DNA of 32,000 nt from Acaryochloris thomasi RCC1774 (GCF_003231495.1 NZ_PQWO01000003.1:270001-302000), one strand, 5' to 3'. Shown: positions 466-14,014, numbered from the stretch's first letter. A program made the numbers and translations. Notes: generated by a model not told the origin, from the letters alone.

Positions 466-1517
466 TTATGACCCGGAAACTTCTTAAGAAGTCTCTGGGT
501 TATTTCTGTCGGATTTGGATCCTGCATAATTGCTCGCACCACTGCTGCTTTTTCTGCTCCAGCAGCTAGTACCTCGGTTAAGTTCTGTTCGTCAATGCCG
601 CCGATTGCATACCAGGGCATTGGGGAATTTTGAGAGACATATTGAATGTAATCTAGCCCGACGGGTGCTTTACCCACTTTGGTTGGTGTGGCAAAAATCG
701 GACCTACGCCAATGTAATCAGCTTTTTCTTTAATGGCTCGCTCCATTTCGTCAACGTTTGTTGTCGACCGACCAACAACTTTTTCGGGACCGAGAATTTG
801 GCGAGCGAGGGCCATTGGAACATCTTGTTGACCCAGGTGGACACCATCGGCGTTAACGGCCAGCGCAATATCAACACGATCGTTGACGATAAAGAGCGCA
901 TCATGCTGATGGCAGAGCTGACAAAGCTGATGGGCGGTGTGCAAGCGTTCGCTGTCAGATGAGTCTTTGTCCCGATGCTGTACTAACTTCAAGCCGCCCT
1001 TCAAGGCTGCTTTTACTGTTGCAACTAAGGTTTCACTAGGGGAAGTCACAAGATATAGGTCAGGTAGAGTGTATGGATCTCGTAGAAGCCTGCTTCTCAA
1101 AGATGAATGGTGTGTAGCTCGAGACAATTGGCTTTCGAGGGTGTAAATTTGATATCGCATCTGCTTGCAAATGTCTGCCATTGCGGGTTCGCAAAGCTTG
1201 CTGTATTCTTCCAGCACCCTTAGTGATTCTTGAGTACGGGCGAGATTGGCTTGTAGAACAGCGTCAGGACTGGCCCGAGACTGCTCTTGAATGTGGGTTA
1301 GCTGTGTGCCTGGATCGTGGAGAGTATCGCGAGCCTGCCGGAAAATTGGCCGGTGTAACTGGGCTAATTCATGACGCAGATGCTTGCACTGGTCTGCTAG
1401 CTCAAGGTCCCGCAGACTAAAGCGACACCACTCTTCGATGACGCGGATTCCCTCACGGGCACGATCAAGGTTCGCATCCAAGATACGGTAGATGGCAGAA
1501 TTATGCGGCTTCTCCAT
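447..1517 (-). CDS. thiE: Thiamine-phosphate synthase (ThiE) with a ~140-aa N-terminal extension
   Basis: The C-terminal ~210 aa show the TMP-synthase fold signature (LYLVTSP..., VQHRDKD, FIVNDRVDIALAVNADGVHLGQQD, GVGPIFATPTK, AIGGI). The long helical N-terminal extension is typical of cyanobacterial ThiE. Confidence 0.85.
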   Translation of the reverse strand: MEKPHNSAIYRILDANLDRAREGIRVIEEWCRFSLRDLELADQCKHLRHELAQLHRPIFRQARDTLHDPGTQLTHIQEQSRASPDAVLQANLARTQESLRVLEEYSKLCEPAMADICKQMRYQIYTLESQLSRATHHSSLRSRLLRDPYTLPDLYLVTSPSETLVATVKAALKGGLKLVQHRDKDSSDSERLHTAHQLCQLCHQHDALFIVNDRVDIALAVNADGVHLGQQDVPMALARQILGPEKVVGRSTTNVDEMERAIKEKADYIGVGPIFATPTKVGKAPVGLDYIQYVSQNSPMPWYAIGGIDEQNLTEVLAAGAEKAAVVRAIMQDPNPTEITQRLLKKFPGHNLERSQ

Positions 1518-1590
1518 TGTTTTAGAGATTGGGGTGGACAGGTAAAAATTAGTTTCTTCTGCAGTACTTGTTTACAAAGTCGACATAAAA

Positions 1591-3900
1591 TCAAGGTTTT
1601 CCGAGGGTTTGTAGCAGTTGTCCCGTCATTAGTTGCCAAACCCGGATGGTATTGTCTTCGCTACCGCTGACGACAATCGCGCCGTCGGGACTAACGCTCA
1701 ACGCCGAAATTTCACCGCTGTGTCCTTTGAGGGTCTGGACTAACTGAGCATCCTGTAAGCGCCAAAGCTTGATCAGGCTGTCGCTGCTACCGCTGGCCAA
1801 GACTGCGTTATTTGTGCTGAGCGCTAACGCAGAAATGGCTTGGCCATGTCCAGGCAAGGCTCTGATCAGCTGACCTGTTTGCATGTTCCAAAGATGGATG
1901 GCGCCTCCTAAACCTCCGCTGGCCAACTGACGACCATTCTGGCCAACGGCTAGGGCACTTGTAAACTGCATTGTCTTGATCGCATCCCAGTCATTCACAT
2001 TGGGAAAGCTGCGTCGAAACTGTCCCGTTGGGATGTCCCACAGCTTGATTTGGCCATCACTGGTACTGCTAATTAAGGTCTGGGCATCAGGGGTAACGGT
2101 AATGGCTTGGGAGGTTGATACTGAACCTGGCTCAATTTGCCGAACTTCATTGGTTCGTAAGTCTCGGAGCAAAATGGTACCGTCCCAGGCTACGGAGGCT
2201 AGGATTGTTCCACTGCTATCCAACGTTTTGCCGACGGTCTGCCCTCCAGCTTCCTGTAAATTTAAGCGATTACGAGGCTCCCCTGTTGCGAAATCCCACA
2301 GCAAAACTTTGCCGCTGGCGCTGCGACTGACCAGTATTTTCCCCCGATCGGCAAACTGGACGGAGGTAACGGGTTCATAGTGACCAGATAAGGTACGTAG
2401 TAGCTTCCCGGTCTGCAGATTCCAAATTTTGATCATAAAATCTTGGCTACCGCTGACTAGAAATCGACTGTCAGGGCTGATTGCAAGGGTCGAGACCCGA
2501 TCTCCATGGCCTCGTTGACTTGTTGAGGCTCTTATAGATTCAGGCTTCGGTATTTTGGAACCGGGAAGTGTAGTGGATAACCATTCAAAGGAGCGGGTCA
2601 GCTGTTGGTCAAAGGAGCGCTCTAAAGATTGAGGGATGCTCCCGCGTAGATCGGGCAACAATAAAATTGCGAGGCCCGCTAAGCTAGACAGACAAAGAAA
2701 ACTGCCCACCACTGCTTTCGAAGGAGTCGGCAAGCGGATCAGGGCCGACCGATGCCTAGTGGAAGGGGATGGCAGGCTGCTAGAGGAGTGACGCTTGTTT
2801 GAGGTAGACCGTCTGAGAGAAGTTGGTTTTCTAGGGGAGGCGGTTCCGCGAGGCTTGGGGGCCGGGCGAACTTTTGGCTTGGGTTTTGGACTGAAGATAT
2901 CAATGTTGAGCTTGGATTTGCGATCGCACCAATAGCACCGACCATAGCTGAGGCTATAAAGATGATTGGTCTCTATTTTGCAGGTCATCAGATCCTTGCG
3001 AGCCAGCCTTAACGCCCTCACCCAATCAGCTGCAGTAGGTCGATTCTGGGGTTGCCGATGTCCCTTGGAGAAGCAACGGTGAAAGCAATCCTGCAGTTCA
3101 GGATGCACGATGGATAAAGCAATGGTGTGGGGGCCGGGCTGAATCAGGCTGTCTTTTCCAAAGGGCCAGTATCCGGCCTTAATTAACTCTGATGGCTGCG
3201 GTGACTCTCCTTTACCCACCCAGCGACCCTTGAACGGTTGGTCGCCAAACAACAGTAAATAGATGATGACTGCTAATCGAAAGCGGTCGTGGATCTCTGT
3301 TTGATCAACCGTTGCCAGATCTTGACCGAGAAGCTCTGCTGGCGTGAAGCCTTCAGAGCCAACAAGGCATCGATAGAGCTCACGCGTGTGGGGGTCACGT
3401 ACCTGAAAGGAATCAGCATCAATGACAGAAACCAGAGCCTGATTATTGACCAAGATATTCTGAGGTTTGACGTCACCGACGACGTAATCTTCTTGGTGCA
3501 GCGACTGCATCGCCAGCGCAATATTCAACGCGGCGGTGTGCAGATAGTACCAGTTGAAGCGAGGAGCTTTCCGACTGCGCAGCTTCGCATTGTAGATCGT
3601 TGAAAGCTTAACGCTGCTGTCCACCTCCGGCATTAGAAAACCTAGGCATTGCCCCTGAGAGTCCTGCAGCAAATCGTGGGGCCATGCAAAGGTAATATGC
3701 CCGTGTTCCGTCATCGGATCGCGAGGGGGGTGGGCTACCATCACCTGCAGCTTTTTCACCCTTTCAGGGGTCGCTGTATGGTACAGCTTTGCCAGGTATC
3801 CTTTAAGACTAGTCTGCCAGACCGTTCCTTCACCGCTATTGGCAATTTGATCCGTCAACTGGACGGACTGACCTGCAATCATGCGCAGCAGAACCGTCAT
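1591..3900 (-). CDS. Ser/Thr protein kinase-like protein (YegI/TerY-P-type) with Cys cluster, basic S/P-rich linker, one TM helix and C-terminal 7-blade WD40 propeller
   Basis: 769 aa. The kinase core has SGEGTVW (G-loop-like), LAKLY (Lys), VGDVKPQNILV (catalytic loop), VIDADSF (DFG-equivalent) and GFTPAEL. It is followed by C-x13-C-x2-C, then a K/R/S/P-rich stretch (aa 337-395), then AVVGSFLCLSSLAGLAILLL (aa 396-415). Seven WD-type blades end in IWNL, LWDF, LRDL, LWDI, LWNM, LWRL and VWQL. The ATG overlaps the upstream stop (ATGA). Confidence 0.85.
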   Translation of the reverse strand: MTVLLRMIAGQSVQLTDQIANSGEGTVWQTSLKGYLAKLYHTATPERVKKLQVMVAHPPRDPMTEHGHITFAWPHDLLQDSQGQCLGFLMPEVDSSVKLSTIYNAKLRSRKAPRFNWYYLHTAALNIALAMQSLHQEDYVVGDVKPQNILVNNQALVSVIDADSFQVRDPHTRELYRCLVGSEGFTPAELLGQDLATVDQTEIHDRFRLAVIIYLLLFGDQPFKGRWVGKGESPQPSELIKAGYWPFGKDSLIQPGPHTIALSIVHPELQDCFHRCFSKGHRQPQNRPTAADWVRALRLARKDLMTCKIETNHLYSLSYGRCYWCDRKSKLNIDIFSPKPKPKVRPAPKPRGTASPRKPTSLRRSTSNKRHSSSSLPSPSTRHRSALIRLPTPSKAVVGSFLCLSSLAGLAILLLPDLRGSIPQSLERSFDQQLTRSFEWLSTTLPGSKIPKPESIRASTSQRGHGDRVSTLAISPDSRFLVSGSQDFMIKIWNLQTGKLLRTLSGHYEPVTSVQFADRGKILVSRSASGKVLLWDFATGEPRNRLNLQEAGGQTVGKTLDSSGTILASVAWDGTILLRDLRTNEVRQIEPGSVSTSQAITVTPDAQTLISSTSDGQIKLWDIPTGQFRRSFPNVNDWDAIKTMQFTSALAVGQNGRQLASGGLGGAIHLWNMQTGQLIRALPGHGQAISALALSTNNAVLASGSSDSLIKLWRLQDAQLVQTLKGHSGEISALSVSPDGAIVVSGSEDNTIRVWQLMTGQLLQTLGKP
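2920..2927. repeat. HIP1 octamer GCGATCGC
   Basis: Exact match read in the sequence. Confidence 0.95.
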
Positions 3901-4670
3901 TGACCCTGCTCACAAAGGCACATCAGCAGCGTTTTATCATCATCGGTTTTAGCGTTGAGACGGTCAGAATTGAGGAACGTCTCTAGATATACCTGTCGCT
4001 CTGCCGGATCATCCATTGTCTGCAAACAGGACATAAACGGCGCAAAGAAGGGAGGATGCGGTTGCCAATCATGGAAGCGAATGGCAACCTTCTCTAAGCC
4101 ATCGGTGGCGGCACATACGAGGGGCTGTTCCCCGGACTTGACCGCAACCTGCATAGCATCTAAGGCATGCTCTGAAGTCACAAAGACTGTTTCATTGATA
4201 TACTCTCCTTTCTCTGGCTGAAAAAGAAGCTGATACGGCTCCGTTTCTGACATTTTTGCCACAATGAAGCCATCTCCTATCTGCATCGCAGCAATCCAGG
4301 TGGGGGTGGCGATAAAGGTTAACAGCGTACAGCCTAGATCTCGCAGGGCGTAGCCACCAGCCTGGGCTTCTTGATCAAGGGCCAACACCGCCGCATCTAA
4401 TGCACTTTCAAAAATGGCCTGCGCTTGCGTCTCAATGACCTCTCGCTCTAAAGAAGATTGGCTAGAGAGCCATCTTTCTAGATTTGAGAGTACTGTTTTA
4501 ACGGCAAGTTGAGACCCAATATCTGAATATTTGGCGCTGCCCGCTCCGTCAGCAACTGCACCAATGATGCTGTGCTCGCAGGTCACAAAGTCACCATAGT
4601 CCTGGCAGGGAACGCCCCGCTGTAGATGCCGGGTCCCCATCGCTGAATGAACAGTCGCTCTCCAGACCAC
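3897..4670 (-). CDS. PP2C-family protein phosphatase (TerY-P triad / YegK-PphC-like)
   Basis: The N-terminus VWRATVHSAMGTRHLQRGVPCQDYG and the later AVADGAGS, MQIGDG and ATDGL blocks fit PP2C-like phosphatases. I place the start at GTG 4670 because AGGAG (4680-4676) lies 5 nt upstream. The ORF stays open to a TTG at 4730, so the start is uncertain. The stop overlaps the kinase ATG. Confidence 0.8.
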   Translation of the reverse strand: MVWRATVHSAMGTRHLQRGVPCQDYGDFVTCEHSIIGAVADGAGSAKYSDIGSQLAVKTVLSNLERWLSSQSSLEREVIETQAQAIFESALDAAVLALDQEAQAGGYALRDLGCTLLTFIATPTWIAAMQIGDGFIVAKMSETEPYQLLFQPEKGEYINETVFVTSEHALDAMQVAVKSGEQPLVCAATDGLEKVAIRFHDWQPHPPFFAPFMSCLQTMDDPAERQVYLETFLNSDRLNAKTDDDKTLLMCLCEQGQ

Positions 4671-4774
4671 AGCCACTCCTTTGCACGGTTTAATCGTTGT
4701 GATGCTTAGGTCACCCCAGGGATACCACAAGCTAAGAACTACAGATATTCTCTCGGTTATTGGGCTACAGGTTA

Positions 4775-5437
4775 TTAAGTTGCAATCTGTCCCCAGCCAA
4801 CAGGCGGCAGCGCCACCATATCGCCGCCAACGGTGCTGCTGGAAACGCGAACCATCGAGTCACTTAACCAGAGGAACATGGACCGAAAGTCTAGACCGTT
4901 TAGCATCAGAGGCGGTCGCTCTGCAGGGGCGATTTGGCTAAGCGTGTAGATATCCGCGCCCTGGACGCCGACAGCAAAAAATGACATCTTACGTTGGGCT
5001 TCAGCTTCTCGAATACGCTGGGCGGCCTGTTGCCAGGGTGAGGTTGGGTTGGGTGCTCCATCGGTAATTAGAAACACCCAAGGTCGATAGTATTGAATCC
5101 CATTAGTACGATAGGTTTGCTTACGATCTTCAAGGAGATCGAGGGCGTAGGTCAACGCTTCTCCCATAGGCGTTAATCCCTGGGCGACTAAGGTCGGTGG
5201 GACAAAGTGGTCAATGGTAACGAAGTCCTGGACCAGTTCCACGGGGCCAAAGCTGACGATCGCAACATCCACTCTCAGGGCGGCCTGCTCATCTTGGAGA
5301 ATTGCATCTTGAAATGCTTCTAGGCCCGTATTGAGAGCGGCCATAGGCGCACCCTGCATTGAACTAGAGGTATCTACCAATAAAATTACAGGGCACCGAT
5401 TCTCGGGATTTTCAACAAATTCCGGTTGTCCTACCAT
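4775..5437 (-). CDS. von Willebrand factor A (vWA) domain protein, TerY/YegL-like
   Basis: 220 aa. It has a MIDAS motif in VILLVDTSSSMQG, a later LTPMGEAL block and WVFLITDGAPN. ATG at 5437 is preceded by GAGGA. Confidence 0.85.
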   Translation of the reverse strand: MVGQPEFVENPENRCPVILLVDTSSSMQGAPMAALNTGLEAFQDAILQDEQAALRVDVAIVSFGPVELVQDFVTIDHFVPPTLVAQGLTPMGEALTYALDLLEDRKQTYRTNGIQYYRPWVFLITDGAPNPTSPWQQAAQRIREAEAQRKMSFFAVGVQGADIYTLSQIAPAERPPLMLNGLDFRSMFLWLSDSMVRVSSSTVGGDMVALPPVGWGQIAT

Positions 5438-5596
5438 TATTTCCTCGTTGTGAAGGCCAAAGCGCTGCCTCGGCCCATCATAGACGCCGACTAAACCTCC
5501 TTGTAGGTTATCCTATATCGTCTTTGACCGGCAACAATTGGCTGAGTCGAGACCAAAAAAGGCTAATAAAGACCGTTTTGGCGCGAACGGATGCAA

Positions 5597-7870
5597 TTAT
5601 TCTTGCGGTTCTTGCCGCTGGCACTCTTCAAGCTGACTGACGCGGCGCAGCTTCAGAATATCGCTCATTTGTCGAATGCGGGCGCTGATTTGGTCCAGCT
5701 GGTTGCAGTGTTCAATATCTAGCCCCAGTGTAATCAAGGCGGTTTGTCCTGGAAAGGTTTTAACTTGTGCTTTATGAACGTTGACTTTGTTGTCCGTTAG
5801 GCGAGTCAAAATATCCTTGAGGACGCCAACGCGATCGATCACCTCAATCTGCAGCTCGATGGGATAGGTGGGTTGGCGTTTACTCTGTGGCTTTGGGGTG
5901 TTCCAACTTACGGGAATAACGCGATCTCCGGGAATATTCTCGACATTGGAACACCCCTGACGGTGAATCGAGATTCCCCGATTACTCAAGGTAATTACAC
6001 CAATAATCGACTCGCCAGGAATTGGATGGCAGCAGCCAGCGATGTGATAGACCAAGCCTTCGACGCCCAGGATTGGAGAATCACTGGTTTTCTCGGGGCG
6101 TTGGGCTGCAGTGCTGGAGACGAGGTTGATATCTTTAGCTTCTGTGGCCAGGTCATGGCCGTTTTTCGCCTGCTCGTCTCGATTGGTCTCTCGAATGCGA
6201 TTGACGACTAGGTTGAGCGTGATCTCGCCATACCCTAGCCCTGCTAGCAGATCTTCTGGGGTCGAGTAGTTACAGCGCTGGGCAACCGCCTGCATCGGTT
6301 CAGATTTAAGTAGGGCGTCAAACCCTTTTTTGCCCAGCTCTTTCTCTAACATGCTGCGACCCCGGTCGATGTTCTCATCCCGGTGCGATCGCTTGTACCA
6401 TTGCCGAATGCGATTGCGGGCAGAGGTAGAGGTGGCAAAGTTGAGCCAGTCCAGGCTGGGATGGGCGCTTTTTTGGGTCATGACTTCGACGATGTCGCCG
6501 TTGGTGAGGGCGGTATCGAGGGTAACCATCCGACCATTAACGCGCGCCCCGCAGCAGTGATTGCCGACTTCGGTATGAATGCGATAGGCAAAGTCAACGG
6601 GGGTCGCGCCACGCCCCAGTGCAACTAGATCTCCCTTGGGAGTGAAGATGTAGACTTCGCTGTCGAAGAGATCTTCCTTGACGTTATCGAGGAATTCTTG
6701 GGCGTCTTTGAGGTCACTCTGCCATTCTAAAAGCTGCCGCAGCCAGGTGAATTTTTCATCGGCAGCGTTCCATTGCCCGCCGCGAGAATTACCGGATTCT
6801 TTGTATTTCCAGTGGGCGGCAATTCCCAGCTCGGCAATGTGGTGCATTTCTTGGGTACGGATTTGTACTTCTACGGGGCGTCCCCCTAGGCCAATGACGA
6901 CAGTATGGAGGGATTGATAGCGGTTGGGCTTGGGGAGGCCAATATAGTCTTTGAAGCGTCCAGGAATCGGTCGGAAGCAGTCATGGACGATGGCTAGGGC
7001 GCGATAGCATTCGTCGTGGGTGCTGACGATTACTCGGACGGCGGCGACGTCGAAAATTTGATGGAAACCCTTTTGCTGCCGCTCCATTTTTTGATGGATG
7101 CTGTACAGATGTTTGGGGCGACCCGTAATCTCTAAATGACTGAGGTTGAGGGAGCTGAAACGGCTCTGGAGGGTTGCGATCGCATCTTCAATCTGCGCCT
7201 CTCGATCCGCTCTCTTTTCTGCGATCAGCGTCTGCATCTCTCGATAGTCTTCAGACTCTAGATACTTGAAAGCCAGATCTTCGAGTTCCCATTTAAAGCG
7301 CCAAATCCCTAGGCGATTCGCCAGGGGAGCAAAAACATCTCTCGTCTCTTGGGCAATGCGGCGCTGCTTGGCCAGAGGTAAATGCTCCAAGGTGCGCATA
7401 TTGTGGAGGCGGTCCGCTAGCTTAACCACAATCACTCGAATATCTTGGGCCATCGCCAAAAACATGCGGCGAAAATTTTCAGCTTCCCGCTCCGTCTTCG
7501 TCGAGAAATTGAACTTTGAGATTTTGGTCACCCCTTCTACTAGGTGCCGCACCTCAGCCCCGAAATCTTCCTCGAGCTGCTCTAGCGTAATGTCAGTATC
7601 TTCAACAACATCATGCAAGAAGCCCGCTGCGATCATCGAACCGCTCCCCCCCAGCTCCCGCAATAGACCCGCCACCGCCACCGGATGAGCAATGTAAGGC
7701 TCCCCAGATGCTCGGCGCTGCCCCTCATGAAGCTGATAACCGAATTGAAAAGCCTGGCAGATCAGTTGTGCGTCTGATGGACTCTTTCCAGCCTCTCCAT
7801 CAACCTCAATCATGCAGCTTTGCAACCAGTCAGGGAGTTGAAGATCAGAAGGGATGGTTGCCAGGTTCAT
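5597..7870 (-). CDS. spoT: Bifunctional (p)ppGpp synthetase/hydrolase (RelA/SpoT homologue)
   Basis: 757 aa. Contains an HD hydrolase motif (FLHDVVEDT), a synthetase block (RFKDYIGLPKPNRYQSLHT), a TGS region and a C-terminal ACT-like domain. Confidence 0.95.
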   Translation of the reverse strand: MNLATIPSDLQLPDWLQSCMIEVDGEAGKSPSDAQLICQAFQFGYQLHEGQRRASGEPYIAHPVAVAGLLRELGGSGSMIAAGFLHDVVEDTDITLEQLEEDFGAEVRHLVEGVTKISKFNFSTKTEREAENFRRMFLAMAQDIRVIVVKLADRLHNMRTLEHLPLAKQRRIAQETRDVFAPLANRLGIWRFKWELEDLAFKYLESEDYREMQTLIAEKRADREAQIEDAIATLQSRFSSLNLSHLEITGRPKHLYSIHQKMERQQKGFHQIFDVAAVRVIVSTHDECYRALAIVHDCFRPIPGRFKDYIGLPKPNRYQSLHTVVIGLGGRPVEVQIRTQEMHHIAELGIAAHWKYKESGNSRGGQWNAADEKFTWLRQLLEWQSDLKDAQEFLDNVKEDLFDSEVYIFTPKGDLVALGRGATPVDFAYRIHTEVGNHCCGARVNGRMVTLDTALTNGDIVEVMTQKSAHPSLDWLNFATSTSARNRIRQWYKRSHRDENIDRGRSMLEKELGKKGFDALLKSEPMQAVAQRCNYSTPEDLLAGLGYGEITLNLVVNRIRETNRDEQAKNGHDLATEAKDINLVSSTAAQRPEKTSDSPILGVEGLVYHIAGCCHPIPGESIIGVITLSNRGISIHRQGCSNVENIPGDRVIPVSWNTPKPQSKRQPTYPIELQIEVIDRVGVLKDILTRLTDNKVNVHKAQVKTFPGQTALITLGLDIEHCNQLDQISARIRQMSDILKLRRVSQLEECQRQEPQE
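6385..6392. repeat. HIP1 octamer GCGATCGC
   Basis: Exact match read in the sequence. Confidence 0.95.
7176..7183. repeat. HIP1 octamer GCGATCGC
   Basis: Exact match read in the sequence. Confidence 0.95.
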
Positions 7871-8451
7871 GTGTTGAGCAGATTATTGAAGGATCAAGAA
7901 ACAGAGGTAAATAGACGGTCCCTGGATAGCATCTATCGCTAGATAACGCTCAAGGATCCCACTCACTTTCTCTATTCTATGTAATATTCTCTCAATGTAT
8001 GGTGACAGATGATCAAAAATTCTGCTTTGAACACAAACTGCGAATTGCCTGCATCCGTAAAAATCGAGAGGGTCTAAGGCTCATGGTGTAAGCAGAGCCT
8101 CACAATCTAAGAGCTTAGGCTATTGAAAACAACTTTATTAGTTATGGATGCAGAAGTAGCGTCCATCCGTGTTCAACTATCTGAAATGTCGAGTCACCAG
8201 CCAATGCAGCAGAACCAGCTTTTAGAAAAAAGCAAGCTGGAATAACACCTGATCAAATCCAGATTTTTACTCTCTAAAGAAAAAAATATACTGTATTAGA
8301 CTTAATCGGTAGAATATCTTTAAATAAAATCAAAAGTTAATTGCGATGCGATAGATAAGAATACCTAAAAAAAACAACAAATGGTAAATCTTGATATGCT
8401 TCTCTTTCAGTTTATCTGAGATAGAAATGTCAGCTCATCCAGGCTTTTGCC

Positions 8452-9309
8452 ATGACTACGGCCCCCATTATGGAACCCATCAAGCTATTAATCATTGAGG
8501 ATGACACTGGTGACCTCGAGCTACTGGAAGCGTACCTTGAGCCAATGGAATCGGAAGTCATTGAAGTTGTTGTCTGTCAATGGCTTCGGGATGCGAAACA
8601 ACAGTTAGAATCGCAACGTTTTGACCTAATTCTCTTGGATTTATCCCTACCAGATAGTAGAGGATTAGACACCTTTAGAAAAATTCAGGGTTTTGCGCCT
8701 ACAGTACCCGTTGTGATTCTCAGTGGCCTCAGTGATCAAGATCTATCATTGCAGGCTGTCCGCTTAGGTGCTCAAGACTATTTAACAAAAGACCAGGTCA
8801 ATAGCCAGATTCTGTTGCGATCTATTCATTACGCCGTTGAGCGGCACAGGCTCCTATTACAGGCTGGCCAAACGGAGCGGCAAACCCAGAATGAACGTGA
8901 CCTATATCTGCTGGAATCTTTACCCACCCAGCAAAGCACTGTTACTGCGATGTTGTATAACTCAGCCTCGCTCAAAGCCAGTTTCCCTGATGAGTTTCAG
9001 CAAATGGTTCAGCAGTATGGCCGATTGATGGATCTAGCCTTAGAAAAGCGTATGTTTCAGCTCGGTAGCTCGCTTTCTGACCAGCTTCAGGCTGTGGCAG
9101 AAAACCTTGCTTTTTATCAAGTTGGCCCCCGCGACGTGATTGAAATTCATACCGCTGCCGTTCAAACGAAGACCGCTGATTCGCCTTCCGAGAAAACAAC
9201 CGCCTATCTGGAAGAATCTCGTTTTCTAGTGCTAGAGCTGATGGGATATTTGGTCGCTTACTACCGTCGCTATTGTGTTAGAGTCAATCAGCCCAAAATA
9301 AAGCCATAA
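8452..9309 (+). CDS. kaiA3: Chimeric KaiA-like protein: canonical response-regulator receiver domain fused to a KaiA-type C-terminal domain (KaiA3-type)
   Basis: aa 11-135 form a complete REC domain: EDD 16-18, phospho-acceptor D63 in LILLDLSLPD (nt 8638-8640), S91 and K113. The C-terminal segment GPRDVIEIHTAAVQ...EESRFLVLELMGYLVAYYRRY aligns by eye with the S. elongatus KaiA C-terminus (VTKVVEIHMELMDEF...LLDYRLTLIDVIAHLCEMYRRS). The gene lies 22 nt upstream of kaiB. An alternative start is ATG 8470. Confidence 0.7.
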   Translation: MTTAPIMEPIKLLIIEDDTGDLELLEAYLEPMESEVIEVVVCQWLRDAKQQLESQRFDLILLDLSLPDSRGLDTFRKIQGFAPTVPVVILSGLSDQDLSLQAVRLGAQDYLTKDQVNSQILLRSIHYAVERHRLLLQAGQTERQTQNERDLYLLESLPTQQSTVTAMLYNSASLKASFPDEFQQMVQQYGRLMDLALEKRMFQLGSSLSDQLQAVAENLAFYQVGPRDVIEIHTAAVQTKTADSPSEKTTAYLEESRFLVLELMGYLVAYYRRYCVRVNQPKIKP

Positions 9310-9331
9310 ATTATTATCCCGAGTGTCTTCC

Positions 9332-9607
9332 ATGAGCAAGATTCTGCTAACGCTTTATATTACTGGACGGACCCCAAAGGGAGAAAGGGCGATTGCAAAC
9401 CTTTCACAAATATGTGACTCACAATTTCCAGACCAGTATCAAATCAAAATTATCGACGTGCTTGAGCAACCTTACCTAGCAGAGCAAGAAAAGATATTGG
9501 TAACGCCTACTTTGATCAAGCAGCTCCCTCCACCTCTAAGACGCCTCATTGGCGATCTATCTGATCAAGAGCAAGTATTGGTCGGTTTGAACGTGCACCC
9601 CCAATAA
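9332..9607 (+). CDS. kaiB: Circadian clock protein KaiB (short form, no acidic tail)
   Basis: The translation LLTLYITGRTPKGERAIANL...IIDVLEQPYLAEQEKILVTPTLIKQLPPPLRRLIGDLSDQEQVLVGL is closely collinear with KaiB. ATG 9332 is preferred over the in-frame GTG at 9323. Confidence 0.9.
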   Translation: MSKILLTLYITGRTPKGERAIANLSQICDSQFPDQYQIKIIDVLEQPYLAEQEKILVTPTLIKQLPPPLRRLIGDLSDQEQVLVGLNVHPQ

Positions 9608-9643
9608 TCTAGCAACAGAAGTTCCTACAATTATTTGGCGTTT

Positions 9644-11191
9644 ATGAGTTCCAATCAAAAGTTTGCAGACATCCAGGCTGATGAATGTGTAGAAAAACTA
9701 CACACGGCTATCCCTGGTTTAGACCTTATTGCAGAGGGCGGCCTGCCTCAAGGACGAGTGACATTACTCTCTGGGACCGCAGGCAGCGGAAAAACAGTGT
9801 TAGCGGCCCAGTTTCTGGCTGCAGGCATCGTGCACTGCGACCAGCCAGGGGTGTTTATCACGTTCGAAGAACCGCCCAAGGCGATCCGCAAAAATATGCG
9901 TGGATTTGGCTGGACGATTGCGCAATGGGAATCAGAGCAGAAATGGGCGTTTGTGGATGTGTCCCCTCAGCCTCATCAACCACCAACGGTGACGGGCGAG
10001 TATGACATGGGGCCGCTGCTGGCCCGTATTGAGTATGCCATTCGTAGTATCAAGGCGAAACGAGTGGTGCTTGACTCCCTCGGCTCAATTTTTAATCGAA
10101 TTCCCGATCAAGCTTTAGTGCGCGAGGAACTCTTTCGATTGGCGCTTGCGTTAGGTGAGCTAGGAGTTACAACTATCGTCACTGCTGAGCGTGCCGCTGA
10201 ACATGGTGAAGTGGCTCGTTTTGGCGTCGAAGAATTTGTGACGGATGACGTGATTATTCTTCGCAATGCCCTCGAAGCCGAAAAAAGACGCCGAACGGTA
10301 GAGATTCTAAAGTTTCGAGGCACCTCTCACCAAAAAGGTGAGTATCCGTTCACAATTTTGCCAGATGAAGGACTGATCGTAATTCCACTATCTGCGATGG
10401 AGCTGACCCAAACGTCTACTGATGAGAGGATTACGTCAGGGATATTGGAGTTAGATGACCTGTGCAACGGTGGCTTTTTCCAAGATTCGGTGATTTTGGT
10501 GTCAGGACCAACAGGCACCGGTAAAACACTCCTGGTGACTCAGTTTTTGGATGGCGGCTTCAAAAATGACGAGCGCTGCCTGTTATTTGCCTTTGAAGAA
10601 AGTCGCGATCAGCTTAATCGTAATGCAACCGGCTGGGGCGTCGATTTTGATGCAATGGAAGAAGCCGGTCTGCTGAAAATAGTTTGCCGCTACCCTGAAT
10701 CGACTGGATTAGAAGATCACCTGATCCGGATGAAAGAAGTCATGGAGGCTTATAAACCCAATCGTGTCGCCGTTGATAGTCTTTCTGCACTGGAACGGGT
10801 TTCGACGGAAAAAGGCTTTAGAGAGTTCGTGATTAGCCTGACTTCGTTTATCAAGGCCCAGAAGACCGCTGGTTTATTCACTGCGACCACCGCCAATTTG
10901 TTAGGAGGCACCTCGGTAACAGAGGCACATATTTCTACCATTACGGACTCCATTATTTTGTTGCGGTATGTGGAGATGTTCGGTGAGATGCGTCGCGGGA
11001 TGACGGTGCTGAAAATGCGAGGTTCCATGCATGTGAAGGATATTCGGGAGTTTCGGATTGATGGAAGCGGCGCCCATATCGGTAAGCCGCTTCGCAACAT
11101 CAATGGCATCCTTTCTGGCAACTTTTCCTATATGAATCAGGGTGAATTAGATAGAATGAGTCAGCTCTTTAGTGAACCTTCTGCTCATTGA
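9644..11191 (+). CDS. kaiC: Circadian clock ATPase/autokinase KaiC (double RecA-like domain)
   Basis: Two Walker A motifs (GTAGSGKT at nt 9773-9796 and GPTGTGKT). Catalytic EE pairs in ITFEEP and FAFEES. The phosphosite motif EAHISTITD has Ser at 10934-10936 and Thr at 10937-10939. There is a C-terminal A-loop-like INGILSG. ATG 9644 is preferred over the TTG at 9635; with it, Ser/Thr number 431/432. Confidence 0.92.
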   Translation: MSSNQKFADIQADECVEKLHTAIPGLDLIAEGGLPQGRVTLLSGTAGSGKTVLAAQFLAAGIVHCDQPGVFITFEEPPKAIRKNMRGFGWTIAQWESEQKWAFVDVSPQPHQPPTVTGEYDMGPLLARIEYAIRSIKAKRVVLDSLGSIFNRIPDQALVREELFRLALALGELGVTTIVTAERAAEHGEVARFGVEEFVTDDVIILRNALEAEKRRRTVEILKFRGTSHQKGEYPFTILPDEGLIVIPLSAMELTQTSTDERITSGILELDDLCNGGFFQDSVILVSGPTGTGKTLLVTQFLDGGFKNDERCLLFAFEESRDQLNRNATGWGVDFDAMEEAGLLKIVCRYPESTGLEDHLIRMKEVMEAYKPNRVAVDSLSALERVSTEKGFREFVISLTSFIKAQKTAGLFTATTANLLGGTSVTEAHISTITDSIILLRYVEMFGEMRRGMTVLKMRGSMHVKDIREFRIDGSGAHIGKPLRNINGILSGNFSYMNQGELDRMSQLFSEPSAH

Positions 11192-11905: not shown

Positions 11906-14014
11906 ATGCCTACAGGTTCTATTAAGCTTCTAGTAATTGATGACGACCCCGTCGATATTAAGCTCCTGTCGACGTACTTGTCTGGCCACCCACAGCTTCG
12001 GTTTGAACTTCAAGCGGCTCATAGTCTGTCAGAGGGCTTGAGCTGCTTAAAGCAGGATGATGTCGATGTTGTTTTATTAGACTTGTTCTTGCAAGATGGC
12101 GGGGAGGGGCTTCCCACTTTTCGAAGACTCTATGACCACTGTCGAGATATACCAATTGTTATCTTGACTGGGCTGCAAGATGAGTCGTTAGCGGTCTGTG
12201 CACTCCGAGAAGGTGCTCAAGACTATCTCACAAAAGGAAACTTCGACTGCAATTTATTAGGGCGAACGATTCGGTACGCAATTGAACGACATCATTTGCA
12301 TACGCAGATTGAATCCCAAAATCAAGCATTACGACGGAGCGATCACGAGCTGCGCAACCTAATTGAGCGGAATATAGACGGCATCCTGATCTTGGATGAG
12401 AACGGCACTATTCAATTTGCTAACGCGGCCGCGGCCAAGCTTCTAGGACAGCCTGCCTCTGAGATGGTTCAAGAGTGCTTTGGGGTTCCCTTGGTCCCCA
12501 ATCATATGGTTGAGGTGGAAATCCCAGGATCCCCTGAAAAATCCAAAAATGCTGAACTACGTGTGGTGGAGCTGACCTGGGAGGGGAAGAAAGCCTATCT
12601 TGCTTCTTTACGAGACGTGACTCAGCAAAAGGAATCAGAGGTAACTCTACAGCAATTAGCCTACAGTGATTCGCTGACGCATCTTGCCAATCGGGCATTG
12701 TTTATGGAGCGTCTGCGTCAAACCTTAGCCCGTGCTCATCGTCATTGTGATCGTCCGTTTATGGTGATGTTTATCGACCTTGATCACTTCAAGCAGGTAA
12801 ACGATACGCTAGGTCACTCTGCGGGCGATCAGTTGCTGGTTCATGTGAGTCATCAACTGCAACACTGTATTCGGCCAGAGGATACGCTGGCTCGATTGGG
12901 TGGTGATGAATTTGCCATCATTCTGGAAGATATCACTGAGGTTGGGGACGCCATTCGCATCGCAGAGCGCATCTTAGGGCAATTATCTCAGCCTTATACT
13001 TTGCAAGGACATGATTGTCTCATCAGTGGCAGTATTGGCATTGTCTCTAGCCAAAATCAGCTCACGAAAACAGCCTATCCTGATATCGAAAGCTTGCTTC
13101 GAGACGCTGATATTGCGATGTACCGAGCCAAGCAGGAAGGGAAAGCTCGATACGCTGTCTTTGATCACCGTGCGCAGGCCAAGGCAATGCTGGAGTTTGA
13201 GCTTGAGGCAGAGCTGCGACGTGCGGTTGCTCAACAGGAACTCTGTTTGTTCTATCAGCCCATTGTGCGTTTAAAGACCGGAAAGATCTGTGGTTTTGAA
13301 GCGTTAGTGCGTTGGAAGCATCCTCGGCGAGGTCTTCTGGTACCTGGAGAGTTCATGCCCGTCGCGGAACGAACCGATTTAATTGCTGAGATCGATACTT
13401 GGGTGCTGCAATCAGCCTGTCAGCAGTTTCAGTGGTGGAATACGCAAGGGCTCAGTCAACAACTAGGAACGGTGAGCGTTAATGTATCGGGTCGCCGCTT
13501 GGCTCAAAAATCTTTTATCGAGCAAACGCAGCAGGCTCTGCACCGTAGTGGTCTATCGCCGCACCATCTACAGCTAGAAATTACTGAAGATATCATTCTG
13601 ACCAATACGCAAACGGTGGTGAGCAGCTTAGAGCATCTGCGAGCTTTGGGATGCAAATTGAGCATTGATGACTTTGGTACTGGGTATTCTTCGCTCAGTA
13701 GACTGCATTCATTTCCGCTCGATACGCTGAAGGTGGATCGTTCCTTTTTGCTACAGGCCGCTCGCCAACAGAACCACTGGTCGATTGTGCAGGCGATTAT
13801 TAACTTGTCCACCGATTTGGGCTTGAGTGTCGTTGCTGAGGGGATTGAAACCAATGAACAGTGTGATCGACTACGGCAACTTTCCTGTAGCAAGGGACAA
13901 GGATACCTCTTCTCGAGACCCGTCACTCAAGAGAAAGCAACCCAGTTATTGAGGGCCAATCAGTCATACCTTGAACCGGTCGTTTGCCCGACGACGGCTC
14001 TGCAATATGCATGA
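11906..14014 (+). CDS. Response regulator with REC-PAS-GGDEF-EAL architecture (c-di-GMP synthase/phosphodiesterase)
   Basis: 702 aa. REC domain (DDD 12-14, D59, T88, K110). PAS region at aa ~145-245. GGDEF domain with RPED-x5-GGDEF (I-site plus active site, aa 323-336). EAL domain with EALVRW, SVNVS, EITE, DDFGTG, KVDRSF, EGIET and QGY. Confidence 0.92.
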   Translation: MPTGSIKLLVIDDDPVDIKLLSTYLSGHPQLRFELQAAHSLSEGLSCLKQDDVDVVLLDLFLQDGGEGLPTFRRLYDHCRDIPIVILTGLQDESLAVCALREGAQDYLTKGNFDCNLLGRTIRYAIERHHLHTQIESQNQALRRSDHELRNLIERNIDGILILDENGTIQFANAAAAKLLGQPASEMVQECFGVPLVPNHMVEVEIPGSPEKSKNAELRVVELTWEGKKAYLASLRDVTQQKESEVTLQQLAYSDSLTHLANRALFMERLRQTLARAHRHCDRPFMVMFIDLDHFKQVNDTLGHSAGDQLLVHVSHQLQHCIRPEDTLARLGGDEFAIILEDITEVGDAIRIAERILGQLSQPYTLQGHDCLISGSIGIVSSQNQLTKTAYPDIESLLRDADIAMYRAKQEGKARYAVFDHRAQAKAMLEFELEAELRRAVAQQELCLFYQPIVRLKTGKICGFEALVRWKHPRRGLLVPGEFMPVAERTDLIAEIDTWVLQSACQQFQWWNTQGLSQQLGTVSVNVSGRRLAQKSFIEQTQQALHRSGLSPHHLQLEITEDIILTNTQTVVSSLEHLRALGCKLSIDDFGTGYSSLSRLHSFPLDTLKVDRSFLLQAARQQNHWSIVQAIINLSTDLGLSVVAEGIETNEQCDRLRQLSCSKGQGYLFSRPVTQEKATQLLRANQSYLEPVVCPTTALQYA

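Follow-up and report, generated by a model that had tools for sequence, protein, structure and literature searches.

A probable chromosomal YegL-PphC-YegI (TerY-P) cassette in Acaryochloris thomasi with a predicted transmembrane WD40 kinase

The TerY-phosphorylation (TerY-P) triad consists of a TerY-like vWA protein, a PP2C phosphatase and a Ser/Thr kinase fused to a C-terminal zinc ribbon (PMC11090510). Escherichia coli encodes the three components as YegL, PphC (also called YegK) and YegI, and the two enzymes have been characterized. YegI is an active, autophosphorylating kinase that prefers Mn2+ and in which VGD replaces HRD and DSD replaces DFG; its activity requires K39, D141, the DSD motif and S162, and its kinetics are second order (10.1101/819920). 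PphC is an active PP2C phosphatase that requires D46 and dephosphorylates YegI (10.1101/303594). Here we analysed 32,000 nucleotides of the Acaryochloris thomasi RCC1774 genome (NZ_PQWO01000003.1:270001-302000; this whole 32-kb stretch is referred to as the window), in which a first-pass annotation had recognized a vWA-PP2C-kinase cassette of the TerY-P or yegL-yegK-yegI type. Alignment of the products with the proteins of the E. coli K-12 locus supported this assignment. Because the three products are orthologous to YegL, PphC and YegI, are encoded in a conserved order and retain the residues essential to the E. coli enzymes, the cassette is probably a chromosomal member of this family that acts as a self-contained Ser/Thr phospho-switch. 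To our knowledge the literature assigns the YegL/PphC/YegI family neither a physiological role nor an input or a substrate. The cassette is widespread and progress has been blocked by the near-silent E. coli genes, whereas cyanobacteria hold many copies with recognizable sensor-type domains.

The three genes are consecutive open reading frames (ORFs) on the minus strand in the order vWA, PP2C, kinase (Table 1), and the ORF list reproduced the coordinates given for them earlier; the maximal phosphatase ORF is 3897-4730. All plus-strand ORFs in the triad region were 134 amino acids or shorter and were set aside as unsupported. The ATGA junction reported between phosphatase and kinase was likewise confirmed by the sequence, which reads ...GGT CAA TGA around position 3900 with an ATG at 3900-3898, so that the phosphatase stop overlaps the kinase start. 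In B and O157 strains of E. coli, pphC and yegI share this ATGA overlap (10.1101/819920), and a 4-nt phosphatase/kinase overlap was present in at least 15 related loci. The three proteins are encoded in this order in E. coli too, with identities to the window proteins of 53% (vWA), 33% (PP2C) and 31% (kinase domain), but in K-12 the series is interrupted by yegJ (yegI-yegJ-pphC-yegL).

The vWA protein is the most conserved member of the triad. It matched Pfam VWA (E = 1.2e-9), aligned over its full length with YegL (213 amino acids, E = 1e-73) and is 100% identical to the A. thomasi RCC1774 hypothetical protein C1752_01340. As the first-pass annotation had proposed for this TerY/YegL-like protein, the DxSxS motif of its metal-ion-dependent adhesion site (MIDAS) is intact, reading DTSSS and completed by T89 and D126; D22, S24, S26, T89 and D126 were invariant across 45 vWA homologues. 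The IncHI2 ter cluster, arranged VWA-TerD-VWA-TerY-C-PP2C-kinase, contains TerY proteins that share about 36% identity with the window vWA over amino acids 13-130 (E = 1e-10). As this similarity covers half the length and that to YegL all of it, the window protein is, by sequence comparison, a close relative of YegL and apparently a distant one of TerY. The IncHI2 enzymes differ further from those of the window in size and annotation, the PP2C having 546 amino acids and the kinase being assigned to the InaA family. No signal peptide or transmembrane segment was found in the vWA protein, which is predicted to be cytosolic. AlphaFold2 gives it a standard vWA fold (pLDDT 88.9), and a fold search with this model returned generic vWA/I-domains alone (TM-score ~0.55-0.6), giving no hint of a ligand; a sequence search of the PDB returned no match. 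A conserved RVSS(S/T) patch lies at the C-terminus. Ahead of the first vWA strand, residues 5-16 (PEFVxNPENRCP) were invariant in the 45 cyanobacterial homologues and are partly kept in YegL (NPEPRCP); this peptide could be a docking motif. Residues 1-7 of the model are of low confidence (pLDDT <50).

The second gene encodes the PP2C-like phosphatase that had been predicted, with a match to Pfam PP2C_2 at E = 1.9e-53 and a full-length alignment with PphC (E = 1e-40); its PDB sequence search gave no match. In the alignment, the Asp of ADGAGS (in AVADGAG) corresponds to the essential D46 of PphC. Although the ORF is real, its first possible start codon, TTG 4730 (277 amino acids), is probably not the true start. 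Two further candidates are GTG 4670 (257 amino acids) and ATG 4640 (247 amino acids), the latter being the choice of one public annotation. An AAGGAG at 4682-4677 precedes GTG 4670, the PphC alignment begins at the residue encoded by this codon and the phosphatase relatives are likewise 257 amino acids long; for these reasons GTG 4670 is probably the start.

The N-terminal 340 residues of the kinase matched Pfam Pkinase (E = 1.6e-10), and residues 10-325 aligned with YegI at E = 8e-39. The divergent core described in the first-pass annotation, with VGD instead of HRD, DVKPQN kept and IDADSF instead of DFG, reads as stated and is shared with YegI, the two kinases having VVGDV and ID(A/S)DSFQ in common. 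All residues known to be essential in YegI are matched in the window kinase (K38, D143, D161-A-D163 and S164). Across 76 homologues, D143, K145, N148, D161, D163 and S164 were invariant and K38 was at least 90% conserved. In contrast to YegI, which has a Ser at this position, the window kinase keeps the catalytic-loop Asn of DVKPQN. Since the essential YegI and PphC residues are retained, the sequences give no ground for calling either enzyme dead. The kinase domain retrieved only generic eukaryotic kinases in a PDB sequence search.

While this account of the kinase core was correct, it had overlooked residues ~300-769, as the ORF runs 440 residues past the kinase domain through a Cys/His motif, a linker, a transmembrane segment and a WD40 region. 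The Cys/His motif (C307, H313, C322 and C325) was invariant in the 76 kinase homologues and in YegI; it corresponds to the zinc ribbon of TerY-P kinases and is predicted to bind metal. The window unit thus resembles the TerY-P triad in combining a MIDAS-bearing vWA protein, a PP2C and a kinase with a C-terminal zinc-binding motif in a conserved three-gene unit, and the kinase resembles YegI in its VGD loop, its DxDS segment, the C-H-C-C motif after the kinase domain and a membrane anchor. The anchor itself differs. In kinases of the E. coli type the C-terminus forms a two-pass membrane hairpin, which leaves both termini in the cytoplasm, and there is no external domain. The window kinase lacks such a hairpin and has instead one predicted transmembrane helix, its sole hydrophobic segment (amino acids 394-415, Kyte-Doolittle mean 2.38), followed by a WD40 propeller of about 300 amino acids. 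The 58-residue linker ahead of the helix contains 15 K/R, no D/E, 17 S/T and 12 P and is probably disordered. Because the charge is unbalanced across the hydrophobic segment (+15 before it and +2, from 8 K/R and 6 D/E, after it), the kinase side is predicted to be cytoplasmic and the propeller extracytoplasmic, in the periplasm or the thylakoid lumen.

The WD40 region matched Pfam WD40 at E = 5.9e-50. When folded alone with AlphaFold2 it gave one helix followed by 28 strands, corresponding to seven blades (pLDDT 74). In a close metagenomic relative (locus L002, 4400-5192) the kinase ORF ends after the first WD40 blade (500 amino acids) and a separate 227-amino-acid gene follows, probably through a frameshift or an assembly error. 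Among natural PDB structures, the propeller was matched best by entry 5yzv, the WD40 domain of a Thermomonospora curvata protein (E = 2.5e-25, 31% identity). We take this entry to be PkwA, a Ser/Thr kinase with a C-terminal seven-bladed WD40 domain, and presume it to be a canonical HRD/DFG Hanks kinase that has no transmembrane segment between kinase and WD40 and lies outside any vWA-PP2C triad. Among other modules, ArnA and ArnB of Sulfolobus are a phospho-regulated pair of FHA and vWA proteins. A genetic tie between stand-alone vWA proteins and Ser/Thr kinases or phosphatases has been described for ArnA/ArnB and for Deinococcus DRA0331-0334 (10.64898/2026.01.23.701218), the latter being a vWA-Ser/Thr protein kinase-FHA-PP2C operon. 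Both modules differ from the window triad in their FHA phospho-reader and their canonical kinases; no gene for an FHA protein was found in the window.

To follow the triad in other genomes, a kinase-domain scan was run with one genome per species. It recovered more than 550 relatives, of which the best 80 loci, all cyanobacterial, were analysed by calling ORFs and searching these with the three window proteins. The neighbourhood conservation asked for in the first-pass annotation was found: 71 of the 80 loci contained the full triad, invariably in the order vWA-PP2C-kinase and on one strand. The remainder comprised five solo kinases, one locus without PP2C and three cut by contig ends. The similarity scores of the three proteins co-varied across loci (Spearman rho 0.40-0.66), which suggests that the triad is inherited as a unit. 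The five solo kinases (L017, L023, L025, L026 and L067) are YegI-like with a two-transmembrane tail, and no vWA or PP2C gene lies within 10 kb of them.

The kinase family as a whole comprises 2,924 clusters (50% identity, E <= 1e-30) and its proteins range from ~350 to 1,086 amino acids. WD40 repeats were present in 34 of the 76 full-length cyanobacterial kinases, and in two layouts. The transmembrane-then-WD40 layout of the window kinase was scored in 14 full-length relatives, with the segment at the same position; together with the window kinase, L009 and L015, which share this layout but were mis-parsed by the script, this group amounts to about 17. It contains the closest relatives of the window kinase, from Acaryochloris, Thermosynechococcaceae, Altericista, Stenomitos and others. 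In the other layout, typical of Nostocales, WD40 comes straight after the kinase, and the extreme C-terminus has one or two transmembrane segments. Among the kinases without WD40, 18 have a YegI-like two-transmembrane hairpin and the rest have one segment or none, some with TPR repeats. Within the window clade, identity was 61-91% in the kinase domain, 29-80% in WD40 and 12-62% in the linker, and the lower figures for WD40 than for the kinase domain fit a conserved catalytic core coupled to a faster-evolving sensor.

Four genomes carry two kinase loci each (L008/L045 in Altericista, L007/L062 in an Acaryochloridaceae metagenome-assembled genome, L015/L059 in Petrachloros and L013/L037 in Stenomitos). 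Three of the second copies are full triads and one lacks PP2C. In each pair one kinase has the transmembrane helix and WD40, and the other has a tail with two, one or no transmembrane segments and no WD40. Triads were also found on plasmids, in Trichormus variabilis 0441 (L085, 5995-9512) and Calothrix sp. PCC 7716 (L042); the family therefore has mobile members, of which the window copy is not one. The L085 triad has a WD40 kinase and lies on a conjugative plasmid, a few kilobases from an integrase and an HNH endonuclease.

The cassette is real and belongs, as an ordinary member, to a family that has been described and is widely annotated. In JGI the vWA proteins go under 'uncharacterized protein YegL', the phosphatase is publicly annotated as 'PP2C family phosphatase', and RefSeq names the Trichormus variabilis plasmid homologue, which stands beside VWA and PP2C genes, 'WD-40 repeat-containing serine/threonine protein kinase'. 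We considered the WD40 fusion as a possible novelty and rejected it, given its frequency among the relatives and this existing annotation. A literature search found no paper on a cyanobacterial vWA-PP2C-kinase cassette. We regard the transmembrane helix with its predicted external WD40 and the adjacency to spoT, described below, as useful leads rather than surprises.

By homology to the characterized E. coli proteins, the window kinase would be a Hanks-type, Mn2+/Mg2+-dependent enzyme that autophosphorylates on its activation segment, and the PP2C would strip this autophosphorylation and so reset the kinase. The ATGA overlap would couple the synthesis of the two enzymes. The anatomy of the kinase suggests a single-pass membrane protein whose kinase domain, zinc-binding motif and basic linker are cytoplasmic and whose WD40 propeller serves as a ligand-binding sensor facing the periplasm or the thylakoid lumen. 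Binding of a ligand to the propeller might then control dimerization or oligomerization of the kinase and its trans-autophosphorylation. More conjecturally, the metal site of the vWA MIDAS could recognize an acidic or phosphorylated residue, either of the activated kinase or of a downstream target; phosphorylation of the vWA protein, on its RVSS(S/T) patch, is a further possibility, after which the protein would relay the signal.

The position of the triad bears on what that signal might reach. In 12 of the 17 loci that make up the transmembrane-WD40 clade, the triad is immediately preceded by a spoT/rsh gene of the same orientation. Genes beyond spoT differ among subgroups, while the position of the triad is syntenic across genera; since the spoT position is stable while the outer flanks differ, this arrangement speaks for vertical descent at a fixed site, and it may reflect a functional link with spoT. 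The loci listed with the window for spoT adjacency are L003-L011, L013, L014, L016 and L019, of which L006 is that of Acaryochloris marina MBIC11017. Because the triad is conserved directly downstream of spoT, (p)ppGpp metabolism can be named, speculatively, as a candidate output in this clade. The full version of this idea, in which the triad is a transmembrane receptor kinase whose external WD40 reports an envelope or lumenal signal and whose switch and vWA protein act on SpoT/Rsh, seems to us a long shot. If true, it would link Ser/Thr signalling to (p)ppGpp control and give the yegLKI/TerY-P family its first physiological output. In any case the clade, with its stable spoT site and probable external WD40, offers a handle on ligand, topology and candidate output, and may help to part housekeeping-signalling members of the family from phage-defence members.

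Several observations weigh against parts of the phospho-switch model and its extensions. Ser160 of YegI, one of its three autophosphorylation sites, is replaced by Ala in the window kinase and by Thr in most relatives. As WD40 precedes the C-terminal transmembrane segments in the Nostocales-type kinases, their propeller must be cytoplasmic, which counts against WD40 serving as an external sensor in every case. Subgroups also have additional flanking genes in common, and the adjacency to spoT could be plain inherited synteny. All biochemistry on the cassette comes from the E. coli proteins. Even in E. coli the only known substrate is the kinase itself, and expression of yegI and pphC went undetected under the conditions tested (10.1101/819920; 10.1101/303594).

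Other explanations of the locus start from the same family resemblance. According to the accounts in PMC11090510 and PMC7699616, Gao 2020 reported a TerY-P-like triad to act on its own as an anti-phage system, with activity against T7-like phages. The first-pass annotation, which called the role of the family unknown, had passed over this reported variant. On an anti-phage reading, the kinase would sense infection, possibly via its repeat domain, and the switch and the vWA protein would trigger growth arrest or restriction. Triads embedded in CoCoNuT/McrBC (PMC11090510) and Helicobacter pylori island contexts, the highly variable kinase C-termini (WD40, TPR or transmembrane), the paralogous triads in several genomes and the plasmid copies in cyanobacteria are all in keeping with such a function. 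However, the system of Gao 2020 and the window triad are alike in their three domain types and differ in the kinase: the former, as described in PMC11090510, has an OB fold in place of the zinc ribbon, while the tail of the latter consists of the transmembrane helix and WD40, with no OB fold. With PADLOC models, scanned at cut-offs of E <= 0.01 and E <= 10, the vWA protein matched 'TerY' only at E = 0.025, the PP2C had no match and the kinase gave nothing beyond generic kinase matches; NCBIfam returned sub-threshold generic hits only. Given these PADLOC results for the vWA protein and the PP2C, membership in the PADLOC/Gao defence family is not supported by sequence. In contrast to TerY-P triads in ter operons and CoCoNuT/McrBC islands, the window triad has no ter or restriction neighbours: the 32 kb held housekeeping genes throughout, with no defence, mobility or ter genes (terZABCDE, TerD or TerY-C) and no McrBC, helicase or nuclease genes near the triad. 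The stable position next to spoT across genera speaks for vertical inheritance, the vWA protein is nearer to YegL than to the ter-operon TerY proteins, and we found no defence report for E. coli yegLKI. Taken together, these points make an anti-phage role of the window copy rather unlikely.

A metal- or tellurite-type stress sensor, in which the vWA MIDAS would sense a metal ion and the kinase and phosphatase would transduce the signal, goes back to the original TerY-P proposal of a metal-sensing, phosphorylation-dependent switch (Anantharaman 2012, as cited in PMC11090510). The composition of the IncHI2 ter cluster, the similarity of the window vWA to its TerY proteins and the intact MIDAS motif agree with it, but that similarity is distant and partial and the ter genes named above are missing from the window. 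In vWA/I-domains the MIDAS metal typically serves protein-ligand binding rather than metal sensing. We hold such a sensor to be very improbable. It is hardly credible that the three genes are chance or historical neighbours without joint function, or that the kinase is a catalytically dead scaffold. The five loci with a solo kinase and the loss of HRD and DFG could be read in this way, yet order and orientation of the three genes are the same in 71 of 80 loci, conservation extends to the ATGA overlap, YegI is active with the same deviant motifs (10.1101/819920) and its essential residues are all conserved in the window kinase. The phospho-switch of the YegL-PphC-YegI type remains the reading that we favour.

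Table 1. Features of the vWA-PP2C-kinase cassette and of nearby genes; positions are counted from the first nucleotide of the window.
Feature	Position	Strand	Remark
YegL-like stand-alone vWA protein	4775-5437	-	220 aa
MIDAS DxSxS (D22-T-S24-S-S26, reads DTSSS)	5360-5374	-	from translation
MIDAS-completing T89	5171-5173	-	
MIDAS-completing D126	5060-5062	-	
PP2C_2 phosphatase	3897-4670	-	257 aa from probable start GTG 4670
ATGA, PP2C stop/kinase start overlap	3897-3900	-	read from sequence
Kinase ORF	1591-3900	-	769 aa
YegI-type Ser/Thr kinase domain	3001-3900	-	aa 1-300
Kinase K38	3787-3789	-	
Catalytic loop VVGDVKPQN	3457-3483	-	
IDADSF	3406-3423	-	
Zinc-ribbon-like motif C307-x5-H313-x8-C322-x2-C325	2920-2988	-	
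Basic Ser/Thr/Pro-rich juxtamembrane linker	2722-2895	-	aa 336-393
Single predicted transmembrane helix	2656-2721	-	aa 394-415
Seven-bladed WD40 beta-propeller	1594-2496	-	aa 469-769
spoT/rsh	5597-7870	-	directly upstream of triad
Receiver-domain protein	8452-9309	+	285 aa, Pfam 2.9e-21
kaiB	9323-9607		
kaiC	9635-11191		
REC-PAS-GGDEF-EAL protein, cyclic di-GMP signalling	11906-14014	+	702 aa, just downstream of kaiC

A consensus promoter and terminator scan of positions 1300-8500 found such sites no more often than in shuffled sequence, and no convincing promoter or terminator in the gap between spoT and the vWA gene. The neighbours of the triad are the end of rpoC2, a ThiD2/TMP-TENI (thiE-type) gene, spoT, kaiB and kaiC, in agreement with a cyanobacterial chromosome, and the rest of the window encodes PGDH, PrmA, an ABC exporter, a Rieske/PaO oxygenase, aconitase, an acyl-AMP ligase and ThiC. 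The receiver-domain gene lies just upstream of kaiB, where kaiA would be expected. An assignment of its product as KaiA was rejected, as Pfam gave a receiver domain and no KaiA domain; its 160-amino-acid C-terminal part is without a Pfam match.

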